From a virus (taxonomy: Duplodnaviria > Heunggongvirae > Uroviricota > Caudoviricetes), in IMG/VR virus record IMGVR_UViG_2534681653_000013: a stretch of DNA of 5,405 nt. One strand, written 5' to 3'. This document shows, one piece after another, positions 1 through 4,870 of this stretch. Each line of letters begins with the position of its first letter. Position 1 is the stretch's first letter. The notes beneath the pieces were generated by a model. The model ran no database searches. It worked only from the letters and a program-made list of their open reading frames with translations, and had not been told where the DNA came from. Both the position numbers and the translations under genes were made by a program.

Positions 1-212
1 TCAGCACCTGAATCCGCGATTATCACATATACCTGGTTGCTGATTGCCCCTCCGCACAGGGGGATTCACCATGCGAAATTTTTTTAACAAACGCTCAGCA
101 TGTCAGGCAACATTCAACTGCCTGAATTGTGAGGCATTTAACATTTCACTGTCCGGTGTCTTTCCTGTAATAAAAAGCCCGCAAAAGAGAGTCAGGGCAG
201 ATAAGTGTGGTG

Positions 213-289
213 TGGCGCGTTGTACTGGATTCGGACCAGTGACCGATTGCTTAGAAGGCAATTGCTCTGTCCGGCTGAGCTAACAACGC
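213..289 (-). tRNA. tRNA-Arg, anticodon UCU (reads AGA)
   Basis: Hand-folded minus-strand cloverleaf: acceptor GCGTTGT/ACAACGC, D-stem GCTC/GAGC, anticodon stem ATTGC/GCAAT with loop CTTCTAA, T-stem ACTGG/CCAGT, discriminator G, encoded CCA. Same layout as E. coli argU. T-loop reads TCCGAAT (C at position 55). Confidence 0.75.
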
Positions 290-302
290 TGAATACCGAT
301 AA

Positions 303-379
303 TGGACCGCCATCGGGGACCCGAACCCCGCGCAACCAGCTTCGAAGGCTGGCGCTCTGTCCTGATGAGCTAATGGCGG
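303..379 (-). tRNA. tRNA-Arg, anticodon UCG (reads CGA/CGG)
   Basis: Hand-folded minus-strand cloverleaf: acceptor CCGCCAT/ATGGCGG, D-stem GCTC/GAGC, anticodon stem CCAGC/GCTGG with loop CTTCGAA, T-stem CGGGG/CCCCG, encoded CCA. T-loop reads TTCGGGT (G at position 58). Confidence 0.7.
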
Positions 380-388
380 TATGTGATA

Positions 389-464
389 TGGTGGCCCTTG
401 CTGGATTTGAACCAGCGACCTGGCGATTATGAGTCGCTCGCTCTCACCACTGAGCTAAAGGGCT
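389..464 (-). tRNA. tRNA with anticodon CAU (Ile2 lysidine-type like ileX/ileZ, or elongator Met)
   Basis: Hand-folded minus-strand cloverleaf: acceptor AGCCCTT/AAGGGCC (A1:C72 mismatch), D-stem GCTC/GAGC, anticodon loop CTCATAA, T-stem GCTGG/CCAGC with canonical T-loop TTCAAAT, discriminator A, encoded CCA. Overall resembles E. coli ileX as I recall it. Confidence 0.75.
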
Positions 465-2378: not shown

Positions 2379-2833
2379 TACGCCTCCTGCTTGTCACGGA
2401 GCTGCTGGAACTCGCAGCTCTGCGGAATAGTCAGATGGCAACCAATATTCATCGCCCAGGCTTCAACCTTACACAGGAAGACATACATCTCTCCGGTATC
2501 AAGATCGGAGGTATGGCGTAACGACTGGATAGTGGTGATATCACCGGTTACGACATCAACCAGGTCTTTGGTTTCATAACCGAGATATGTGTGTTTGAGA
2601 GCATCTTTTACCCAAGCTGGAGTGGCGAACGTTTTACCCCTGCTGATGAGGTATTCACTGATTTCGCTGTACCACATGTGGCTGAGTGCATTCTGGGAAA
2701 GACTGCGTTTCTCACGCCACGGTTTAAGCACCATGCGAAAGCATTTGCCCTCCTCCAGATAAGGCTGGATCTGCCGACCGATAGCGGTGAAGTTGCCGCG
2801 ATGTAATTTGATGCCGTCTTGTGAGAGGTTCAC
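2378..2833 (-). CDS. ybcN: YbcN / NinB-family recombination (DNA base-flipping) protein, 151 aa
   Basis: Track ORF; GTG start at 2833 preceded by GGAGGTG with a 4-nt spacer. Translation [30 protein letters not shown]... matches my memory of DLP12 YbcN. Confidence 0.9.
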
Positions 2834-2931
2834 GCTTCACCTCCGCAGAGGTCAAACGCTAGATGCAAAGAATTGCAGGTGCATTTCTGCATCTGTGAAG
2901 GGAGAAGAGAGTTTGGATTGTATGTGCGCAT
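2830..2931 (-). CDS. ylcH: Small ORF YlcH-like, 33 aa
   Basis: Hand translation: [33 protein letters not shown]. Its stop overlaps the ybcN GTG start (GTGA); GGGGA lies upstream of the ATG. Position matches ylcH in K-12 DLP12. Short, so coding status is uncertain. Confidence 0.5.
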
Positions 2932-2954
2932 AAACGTCCCCGTTTAGCGCAGAA

Positions 2955-2983
2955 GTCACCGGAGTTGTTCAGGCTCCGGTGAC
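2955..2983. repeat. Perfect 10-bp palindrome GTCACCGGAG-N9-CTCCGGTGAC
   Basis: Read directly from the sequence. Lies in the ybcM-ylcH intergenic region, immediately downstream of the candidate -10 at 2987-2992. Confidence 0.6.
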
Positions 2984-2986
2984 ATA

Positions 2987-3015
2987 ATTATGCCGTGTTG
3001 ATTTCCCAAAATCAA
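2987..3015 (-). promoter_or_regulatory. Candidate sigma70 promoter for the ylcH-ybcN-ninE-ybcO-rusA-ylcG-Q block
   Basis: Minus strand TTGATT (-35, 3010-3015), 17-bp spacer, CATAAT (-10, 2987-2992). The predicted start site falls within the right arm of the adjacent palindrome. Confidence 0.3.
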
Positions 3016-3047
3016 AATCGATAGAATTGCTCCTTCTTAAAACACTT

Positions 3048-3845
3048 TTACTCTCTGGAAGCTTTTCTTATCTCTCTTGGTGTTATATTAAAACGATTAT
3101 GAAATCTTTCAGTAAAACGCGAAGGACACTTATAACCATTTTCTCTGGCAATCTCGCTTATAGGTTTTACCGTCGTTTGTATAGCAGACAACGCATTATT
3201 TAACCTCACATCGTCCAGTATACTTTGGAAACTTACCCCCTCGCTTGCTAGACGGCGATGTAATGTAGAAACAGAAATGTAGAGATATCGAGCAACCTTG
3301 TTTGCTGTCCATTTTGTGCCGGGTTCGGATAGCAGCAGGTTATAACAACGACTTATCAATGATTGTTTACTATATGATAAAAGTAAATGATTAACATGAT
3401 TCACTCCTAACGAAAGTAGAACGCCCATTGCTAAGTGCTCCTGAATTTTAGTTGAGAAGCCTCGGGAAACAGATGTTTTTAGTTGCTCCCAACAATATAT
3501 TAACTCAGGATTCTGAGGTAAAAAGAAACTTGTTTTGTTACGTATTTGATCAGTTACCGTATAAAGCTTTTGGAAACTCTCAATTAAATCAATGGGTAAG
3601 TAAAGCATTTCTGCAAGATAAAGCCCTGCTTCAGGATAATTCTCAATATAAAATTCATAACCACAAGGAAATAATATTATTTGATTATTATCAACAGTTA
3701 AAGTATGCGTCTCCCAATTGATAACTTTCTTTCCCTGACGGATACGACACAAAGCTGGCATAAGAGGCTTAACCCTATGAATCTCATGATGTTTATGCAT
3801 CCGTATTTCTTCGATCTTTAAGTTAGTCTTACCTCTTGCCAGCAT
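3048..3845 (-). CDS. ybcM: AraC/XylS-family transcriptional regulator YbcM, 265 aa
   Basis: Track ORF; ATG at 3845. The C-terminal region ([43 protein letters not shown]...) looks like a tandem AraC-type helix-turn-helix. Visibly AT-rich coding sequence. Confidence 0.88.
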
Positions 3846-4672: not shown

Positions 4673-4870
4673 CAGTATTTGAATCTGCGACCAAGAGTTC
4701 TCACCTAACAAATGATTAAGATTGTATAGCTCATTTACTACCCCAATACAGCCGTACAAAACTCGCTTGTGGGAGCAAACAAAGTAATTACCCATTAAGT
4801 TTCGTTAAAGATAATTAATTCTGTCTTGCACTTTATCATCATAGCATAACTTAAAATCCGAGATCATTAT

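Follow-up and report, generated by a model that had tools for sequence, protein, structure and literature searches.

The closest described relative of the element considered here lies in phage 82, at the head of its orf33-orf151-rus-Q genes. The GenBank record for this region (X92588, 1996) annotates a −35 signal (50–55), a −10 signal (73–78), an inverted repeat (82–110, labelled a ‘possible regulator-binding site’), a ribosome site and orf33, which corresponds to ylcH. PMC4118853 identifies X92588 as the record behind Mahdi et al. 1996 and, citing the same study, states that rusA in DLP12 requires insertions that supply a promoter. We analysed the equivalent locus in a 5,405-nt stretch of viral DNA (IMG/VR record IMGVR_UViG_2534681653_000013; hereafter the window), a DLP12 or phage-82-type nin region in which all of the genes are on the minus strand. 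Its ybcM–ylcH intergenic region contains an inverted repeat at 2955–2983 that we name HP1; this is the same element as that of phage 82 (97.7% identity over 214 nt), and our literature search found no study of it later than the 1996 record. Whereas that record guesses at a DNA-binding site from the sequence, the comparison described here favours an RNA stem-loop with a conserved loop, the first of three hairpins in a leader. These hairpins belong to a cassette that, in many lambdoid prophages, stands in front of the nin/Q genes and that consists of a candidate sigma70-type promoter, HP1, a UUCU linker, a second hairpin (HP2), a C-rich open reading frame (ORF) of 33 codons and a third hairpin (HP3).

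The arms of the repeat, GTCACCGGAG (2955–2964) and CTCCGGTGAC (2974–2983), are each 10 nt long, 100% complementary and 9 nt apart, as a preliminary description of this DNA, made from its letters alone, had stated. The window contains no second perfect inverted repeat with arms of 10 bp or more and a loop of 3–20 nt. Dinucleotide-preserving shuffles of the whole window produced a comparable repeat in 81 of 1000 cases (8%); when only the 214-nt ybcM–ylcH intergenic region was shuffled, the yield was 19 in 5000 (0.4%). As minus-strand RNA, HP1 is the stem-loop GUCACCGGAG-CCUGAACAA-CUCCGGUGAC, delineated by repeat search, folding and covariation, with its 5′ arm at 2983–2974, its loop at 2973–2965 and its 3′ arm at 2964–2955. 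The predicted fold has an energy of −17.1 kcal/mol (z = −5.8) on the minus strand, and of −20.6 kcal/mol on the plus strand. Seven of the 10 base pairs are G-C, a composition that suits the GC-rich stem-loop of an intrinsic terminator. A scan with Rfam 15 returned no covariance-model match at 2800–3100 with E ≤ 1; the only matches across the window are three tRNAs and STnc100, all of them elsewhere. We also considered and rejected a nine-codon ORF (AUG UCA CCG ... UGA) that spans HP1: its AUG is missing from many relatives (TAAGTC, AAAGTC) and it sits upstream of the predicted transcription start.

The nature of HP1 emerges from a comparative set of 136 related loci, which contain 61 distinct versions of the stretch from the −10 hexamer to the hairpin. 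Nineteen of these loci were found via YbcN relatives in genomes, 120 are viral contigs that were retrieved through a conserved 21-mer within orf33, and several are annotated phages. Their layout is fixed: TTGAT(T/A), a 17-nt spacer, a −10 hexamer, 3–4 nt, HP1, a short linker (usually UUCU), HP2 and orf33. Within it there are 47 distinct versions of HP1, the arms of which have been swapped wholesale and yet still pair (GUCACCGGAG, UCUGCCAGCGG, GCUGAUGG, GCAGUCGG, GCCGCCGG, GGUUGUCAG). Pairing was counted on loop-anchored, ungapped segments from 41 variants: on the sense strand 89.8% of the cells are paired, and at 10 of the 11 pairs both sides have changed. Covariation scored 0.757, versus 0.249 in shuffles, not one of 500 of which reached the observed value, and controls with slid partners were 23–54% paired.

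The same columns also report on the strand. Read as antisense they are only 78.7% paired, and across pairs 2–11 the unpaired cells number 19 of 410 for the sense strand versus 70 of 410 for the antisense strand; it follows that the G-U wobbles, far commoner on the gene-sense RNA, sit on that RNA. The commonest allele, GUCAUCGGAG..CUCCGGUGAC (as DNA, GTCATCGGAG..CTCCGGTGAC; 33 loci), contains a G-T pair and is therefore an imperfect DNA palindrome. It was these fixed-stem pair counts that were decisive, and not the mean minimum free energies (−14.8 kcal/mol for sense versus −14.4 kcal/mol for antisense), because the antisense loop gains extra pairs. RNAalifold recovered HP1 only partly, and missed both HP2 and HP3, from a MAFFT alignment, because that alignment is not structural.

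These data bear directly upon the possibility, offered by the preliminary description and echoed in the label given to the repeat in X92588, that the palindrome is the target of a dimeric repressor bound over the start site. The palindrome in the window is indeed perfect, and it does overlap the predicted start. However, when the locus is compared with other prophages, it is the structure and the loop that are kept and not the sequence of the arms: these are unrelated between relatives yet complementary within each (GTCACCGGAG, TCTGCCAGCGG, GCTGATGG, GCAGTCGG, GCCGCCGG, GGTTGTCAG), around a constant centre, which is the reverse of the pattern for a palindromic operator. Nor is an operator readily reconciled with the imperfection of the commonest allele as a DNA palindrome, with the strand bias of the wobbles, or with the presence of the cassette in phages that have differing immunity regions. 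We consider an operator at HP1 to be extremely improbable, and we are confident that the palindrome matters as a stem-loop of the sense-strand RNA.

Another key observation is that the core of the loop, UGARC, is invariant at its U, G, A and C, and is usually contained within CCUGAACAA. Members whose stems have nothing in common at the sequence level, such as phi80, Siccibacter L015 and Phytobacter L019, still have this core unaltered. Inspection of the aligned sequences by eye, with no formal scan, for a partner of the loop showed no conserved GYUCA in the leader; by the same reading of the alignment, loop–loop pairing between HP1 and HP2 is not conserved, and neither the MazF motif ACA nor the Hfq motif ARN is retained in all of the HP1 variants. 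Covariation provides good support for the RNA stem-loop itself, and leaves the UGARC loop unexplained.

HP1 is immediately preceded by a candidate promoter. A consensus scan finds, on the minus strand, TTGATT (3015–3010) and CATAAT (2992–2987), which X92588 also marks as a putative minus_35_signal and minus_10_signal; the two hexamers are separated by 17 nt, and the −10 ends 3 nt before HP1. The arrangement given in the preliminary description (promoter hexamers, then palindrome, then ylcH) is therefore right in the direction of transcription, on the minus strand. TTGAT(T/A) is retained in nearly all of 103 distinct relatives. Among 109 aligned sequences, the second base of the −10 hexamer (A) and its sixth (T), that is −11A and −7T, are invariant, and its remaining positions are at least 90% conserved (variants include TATAAT, CATACT, AATAAT, TACAAT and GATAAT); the spacer varies. 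Invariance of −11A and −7T beside a free spacer is typical of a functional sigma70 −10 element. The candidate cassette promoter, with its sigma70-type hexamers and spacing, is in this respect supported by conservation.

Furthermore, nucleotides 6 and 7 after the −10 hexamer are a pyrimidine and a purine, respectively, in 104 of the 109 sequences. A pyrimidine and a purine at these positions constitute the preferred context for initiation under the rule that governs the choice of start site. On this basis we infer a transcription start (+1) on the minus strand at window position 2980, the seventh nucleotide past the −10 and the fourth stem base of HP1; this corresponds to position 572319 of Escherichia coli MG1655, where the coordinate is 572251 + (3048 − window position). 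Cappable-seq (Ettwiller et al. 2016; one data set from one growth condition) records no plus-strand start site at 571200–571799 of MG1655 (U00096.2), and there is no entry for the site among the rows listed in the SMRT-Cappable-seq supplements. The promoter that the preliminary description had suggested is supported by its conserved −11A and −7T, and is not confirmed by Cappable-seq.

The promoter region has other features. In 16 of 98 distinct upstream flanks, a canonical hairpin and T-tract terminator lies right before the −35, which argues that the cassette starts its own transcription unit. A second palindrome, TTGATTT-N4-AAATCAA (2998–3015, both strands), was noted in the plus-strand fold and covers the −35 and part of the spacer; TTGAT-N8-ATCAA is retained in most relatives, and phi80 has the compensatory version TTGATA..TATCAA. 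This second palindrome is a better operator candidate than is that of HP1. Also present, on the opposite strand, is a promoter-like TTGATT-N18-TAGAAT (2998–3027, plus strand) aimed into ybcM in the antisense direction; it is probably fortuitous because its −10 lies in a flank that is not conserved in relatives.

The predicted +1 is base-paired in every HP1 variant, and from that position onwards 98% of the pairs hold (434 of 443); at locus L054, which has two copies of the cassette, the HP1 stem of the second copy starts exactly at the predicted +1. These observations favour an explanation in which HP1 is a 5′-terminal stabiliser: flush with the 5′ triphosphate end, it would shield a poorly translated leader from the 5′-end-dependent decay of RppH and RNase E, in the manner of the ompA 5′ hairpin, and the RNA 3′ ends described below would be stable decay remnants. 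A 5′ end locked into a helix could also account for the missing Cappable-seq start site; such an end, or an RNA of about 31 nt, might elude that method. But the start site upon which this argument depends is a prediction. Moreover, the stem usually runs 2–5 bp upstream of the predicted +1; these pairs would be needless in an RNA that starts at +1, and yet they show compensatory changes in phi80 (UCU/AGA), L015 (GGUU/AACC) and L016 (GGU/ACU). The invariant loop would be equally needless. On balance, we regard a role for HP1 as a 5′-terminal stabiliser as doubtful.

Evidence that RNA ends beside HP1 in vivo was derived from the Term-seq data for MG1655 of Adams et al. 2021 (supplementary file 1), in which 3′ ends are listed at 572349 (+) in LB at an optical density (OD) of 2.0, and at 572350 (+) in M63 at 0.4; the read counts are 1584.5 and 1859.2, respectively. 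These positions correspond to 2950 and 2949 in the window, within the minus-strand linker (UUCU plus G and C, 2949–2954) and 5–6 nt past the HP1 stem, at the end of GGUGACUUCUG, or of CUCCGGUGACUUCUG in the listed sequence; the register of the sequence strings in the table was verified against thrL and argU. The ends are classed as ‘orphan’, 19 nt upstream of ylcH. They occur in two of the three growth conditions: there is no 3′ end at HP1 in LB at OD 0.4.

How these ends arise is constrained by what follows the stem. The RNA 3′ of HP1 is UUCUGCGCUAAAC, the tail UUCUGCGC is without a T-tract, and HP1 is not flagged by a terminator scan that needs at least five T in 8 nt, in agreement with the opinion of the preliminary description that a classic intrinsic terminator is less likely. 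Nor is the tail U-rich in the divergent members L015, L019 and L023, so that classical intrinsic termination is unlikely to be the general mechanism. According to Adams et al. 2021, many such 3′ ends originate from processing, and Rho-terminated RNAs are trimmed back by exonucleases; trimming of this kind would yield the same 3′-end picture as termination 5–6 nt past the stem. The preliminary description had alternatively viewed the palindrome as a 5′-leader RNA hairpin that acts as a terminator or processing site for transcripts from ybcM. In outline this proposal is upheld by the sense-strand covariation and by the Term-seq ends 5–6 nt past the stem; its specific link to ybcM is not.

The latter point rests on the distribution of the cassette, which we matched in 2825 of 5426 complete E. 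coli genomes. In most of these, homology to the window ends a short way before the −35, at about 3016–3017, and a gene other than ybcM lies upstream; YbcM is, therefore, an unrelated neighbour, and its candidacy as a repressor acting on the palindrome, also raised in the preliminary description, is not plausible. In some loci the cassette is followed by a ybcN-like gene and in others by an unrelated one. In five loci the cassette is present twice, with both copies pointing the same way, 2.3–4.1 kb apart and with inserted genes between them (L053, 2240–2420 and 4560–4740; L054, 13130–12900 and 10700–10480; also L139, L120 and L132); in the first copy at L053 there is a stop inside orf33 (CAG to TAG). 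We conclude that the cassette is in all likelihood a transcription unit of its own, and it may serve as a recombination joint for blocks of genes.

It is in this context that we weighed the idea that HP1 is simply an ordinary terminator, or a 3′ protective hairpin, of the upstream gene (ybcM), and so marks the end of a ‘moron’ inserted before the nin genes. HP1 does lie only 65 nt past the ybcM stop, the Term-seq end at HP1 is the only one reported downstream of ybcM, and the corresponding place on the lambda map, between ren and ninB, has a hairpin with a T-tract. Yet HP1 travels with the downstream cassette: homology mostly starts at the −35, and the upstream gene differs. Furthermore, a conserved promoter separates the upstream gene from HP1, the 16 flanks described above already have a canonical terminator before the −35, and HP1 has no U-tract. 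An assignment of HP1 to the upstream gene is very unlikely.

Downstream of HP1, the leader contains two further hairpins. HP2 (2925–2951, minus strand, by folding) presents the ylcH Shine-Dalgarno sequence (GGGGA) in its loop and holds the ylcH AUG (2931–2929) in its 3′ arm. All of its 11 distinct variants pair, through several different stems, and the GGGA of the loop is invariant; in phi80 it is annotated as IR4. As a separate matter, the GGA that the HP2 loop displays over the ribosome site gives this hairpin a resemblance to a CsrA-type site. The ORF that follows (ylcH or orf33; 2931–2830, minus strand; 33 codons) is retained as such in relatives: its 75 distinct peptides share the conserved core SQMQKCTC, and no PHROG or NCBIfam family matches them. 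Its 5′ half is C-rich and G-poor (C/G = 3.0), which is Rho-site-like. We examined one further stem, within orf33 (AUGCAGAAA/UUUCUGCAU), and do not regard it as structurally constrained: most of the variation in it consists of synonymous codon changes, which disrupt the pairing.

The stop codon of orf33 always overlaps the start of the next gene; in the window, it overlaps the ybcN start (GTGA). HP3 (2832–2859, minus strand; minimum free energy about −16.8 kcal/mol) is predicted to sequester the GGAGG and the GUG start of ybcN, and three covarying sequence types of this hairpin are found at the same place in relatives. This organisation points to translational coupling of the first nin gene to ylcH.

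We hypothesize that HP1 serves as an attenuator or insulator in front of nin-Q by setting the point at which RNA ends; we assign this explanation a probability of roughly 45%. HP1 would be the first element of the promoter-leader cassette, situated at, or a few bases before, the predicted +1 of the minus-strand transcript. Transcripts that reach it, whether they start at the cassette promoter or come in from cargo genes upstream (ybcM, for example), would mostly end 5–6 nt later: either a fraction of the RNA polymerase would stop there, or RNA that had been terminated or cut further downstream would be trimmed back to the helix. The net effect would be to hold nin-Q expression low. Read-through would need either an antitermination-proficient polymerase or translation of orf33 through HP2, and this translation would cover the C-rich tract and open HP3. 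The start site, termination or trimming at HP1 as the origin of the 3′ ends, the gating logic and any role for the loop are all steps that we infer within this model.

In support of the attenuator or insulator model we count the pairing of HP1 and its strand bias, the UGARC loop, the promoter hexamers, the Term-seq ends, the silence of rusA, the properties of HP2 and HP3, and the portability of the cassette. Several considerations weigh against it. HP1 is not followed by a U-tract. There is no Cappable-seq start site within about 300 nt, and hence the promoter can be called only a candidate. The Term-seq counts are low (about 1.6–1.9 thousand, versus 10^4–10^7 at many other ends) and no such end is listed for LB at OD 0.4; Adams et al. 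2021 list no Rho-dependent region for these genes. The model offers no reason for the invariance of the UGARC loop, and the 2–5 bp of stem upstream of the predicted +1, with their compensatory changes, are not explained by a purely promoter-proximal hairpin. Indeed, the invariant loop and the extension of the stem past the +1 do not fit cleanly into any of the explanations that we have considered, whether favoured or rival.

A loop that is invariant while the stems vary is what might be anticipated of a docking hairpin, in which UGARC would be the recognition site of RNA polymerase, or of a factor of host or phage origin, so as to alter either elongation (by processive antitermination in the manner of nut or put) or translation of the leader, and thereby exert N-independent control over the nin-Q genes. 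Two hairpins directly after a promoter are also a feature of putL in HK022 (PMC9378689). Moreover, the phages that carry the cassette include some that seem to have no N: for HK639 only a putL-like RNA was annotated by the depositors, with a terminator upstream of the cassette, and PhiR34_1 has no N-sized ORF between cI and gam. On the other hand, phi80 has both N and the cassette; there is no likeness to the annotated boxA/boxB of phi80 nutL, and no boxA-like sequence. The put-like RNA of HK639 folds into irregular, bulged stems, as opposed to the perfect helices of HP1 and HP2, and the ribosome site in HP2 is ill-suited to an RNA that is bound by polymerase. In addition, a search with a covariance model of HP1 through 1.3 Mb of phage loci yielded no additional copies, and none near PL or PR of phi80, HK639 and PhiR34_1. 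A docking role for the loop is, in our view, unlikely; it is quite unlikely that UGARC is a docking site that renders transcription from an internal promoter termination-resistant or gated, and thus adds, to nut and put, a third kind of lambdoid RNA that governs antitermination or attenuation in cis.

PhiR34_1 (L150, PV340559.1) merits a separate description. It is an intact phage that grows on MG1655, and its locus at 4690–11090 has the full DLP12 order, ren-emrE-ylcJ-ybcK-ybcL-ybcM-cassette-ybcN...Q; the ‘cryptic’ cargo genes of DLP12 therefore also ride on a live phage. A PL-proximal transcript of the same phage (790–1350, minus strand) contains a long stem, UCAUCGCAAC...GUUGCGAUGA, that may be put-like; it does not fold more stably than shuffled sequences do.

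The remainder of the window is occupied by annotated genes on the minus strand. Upstream of the cassette are ybcL (4406–3855) and ybcM (3845–3048). Downstream, ybcN (2833–2378), the product of which belongs to phrog_72, the NinB/Orf family, is succeeded by ninE, ybcO, rusA, ylcG and quuD. The ybcM–ylcH intergenic region is 100% identical to that of E. coli O157:H7 strains and 99.6% identical to that of K-12. Past quuD there are three tRNA genes (216–464, minus strand) and a partial match to the small RNA STnc100 (63.7 bits; 1–103, minus strand) that is clipped by the edge of the window, a layout that is typical for O157-type prophages. The Term-seq table also contains, for M63, a 3′ end antisense to ybcQ/quuD at 574366 (−) of MG1655 (about 933 in the window, plus strand); in the MG1655 sequence this end comes after a GGGGCG..CGCCCC hairpin that is followed by a T-run.

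The cassette is of interest for its position: in many lambdoid phages and prophages it lies directly before the genes that lead up to Q, the activator of the late genes. If its promoter is active and the three hairpins do gate expression, it would constitute an unstudied checkpoint on the amounts of Q, and of the recombination functions YbcN and RusA, that operates without the classical N pathway, and gating of this kind would account for the silence of rusA in K-12. Were the loop instead to be a docking site, the outcome would be N-independent control of Q, and hence of lysis, by a cassette that is found in about half of the complete E. coli genomes. In either event, HP1 is a compact RNA motif, supported by covariation, with an invariant loop that lacks an explanation.

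How, then, does HP1 compare with the known regulatory RNAs of lambdoid phages? Small RNAs of the AgvB type and the Pas small RNAs map elsewhere, either downstream of PR′ or near other genes. The hairpin between ren and ninB in lambda, which we take to be tR2, is closer: like HP1 it is GC-rich and directly upstream of a gene of the Orf/NinB family, after ren. The lambda hairpin is then followed by TTTTTATTT, with neither a promoter nor a leader ORF, whereas HP1 is followed by UUCUGCGC, has a conserved promoter before it and has HP2 and orf33 after it. The putative parallel with the put RNAs of HK022 and HK639 is that these too are lambdoid, act as RNA and comprise two stem-loops right after a promoter (PMC9378689 for HK022). 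In contrast to the long, irregular stems of put, with their bulges and a triplex over about 70 nt, HP1 and HP2 are short, regular helices over 60 nt, and HP2 contains a ribosome site; HK639 has both a putL-like RNA and the cassette. The put RNAs suppress termination through RNA polymerase, at the zinc-binding domain of its beta′ subunit. The lambda-type nut sites resemble HP1 in that each has a small hairpin in which the loop is conserved and not the stem. However, nut combines a boxA (CGCUCUUA-like) with a boxB hairpin, in which a GNRA-like pentaloop tops a stem of 5 bp, and is found downstream of PL or PR, whereas HP1 has no boxA, has a 9-nt loop on a 10-bp stem and is located between the ren-side and nin genes; the annotated phi80 nutL hairpin, CACGUAAACGUG, bears no resemblance to it.

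Outside this group, there are leader-ORF attenuators and translational-coupling hairpins, such as that of the tna leader. The cassette shares with these a short ORF that has a C-rich, G-poor tract, that has its own start within a hairpin and that is followed by a sequestered ribosome site for the next gene; the difference is that HP1 itself is upstream of this leader-ORF logic, and that no Rho-dependent region is listed for these genes by Adams et al. 2021. Judged by these comparisons, the HP1 element is a structured phage leader RNA that falls outside of the nut, put and intrinsic-terminator families: it was flagged in 1996, and it is of an ordinary kind, with nothing as yet that points to an unusual mechanism.

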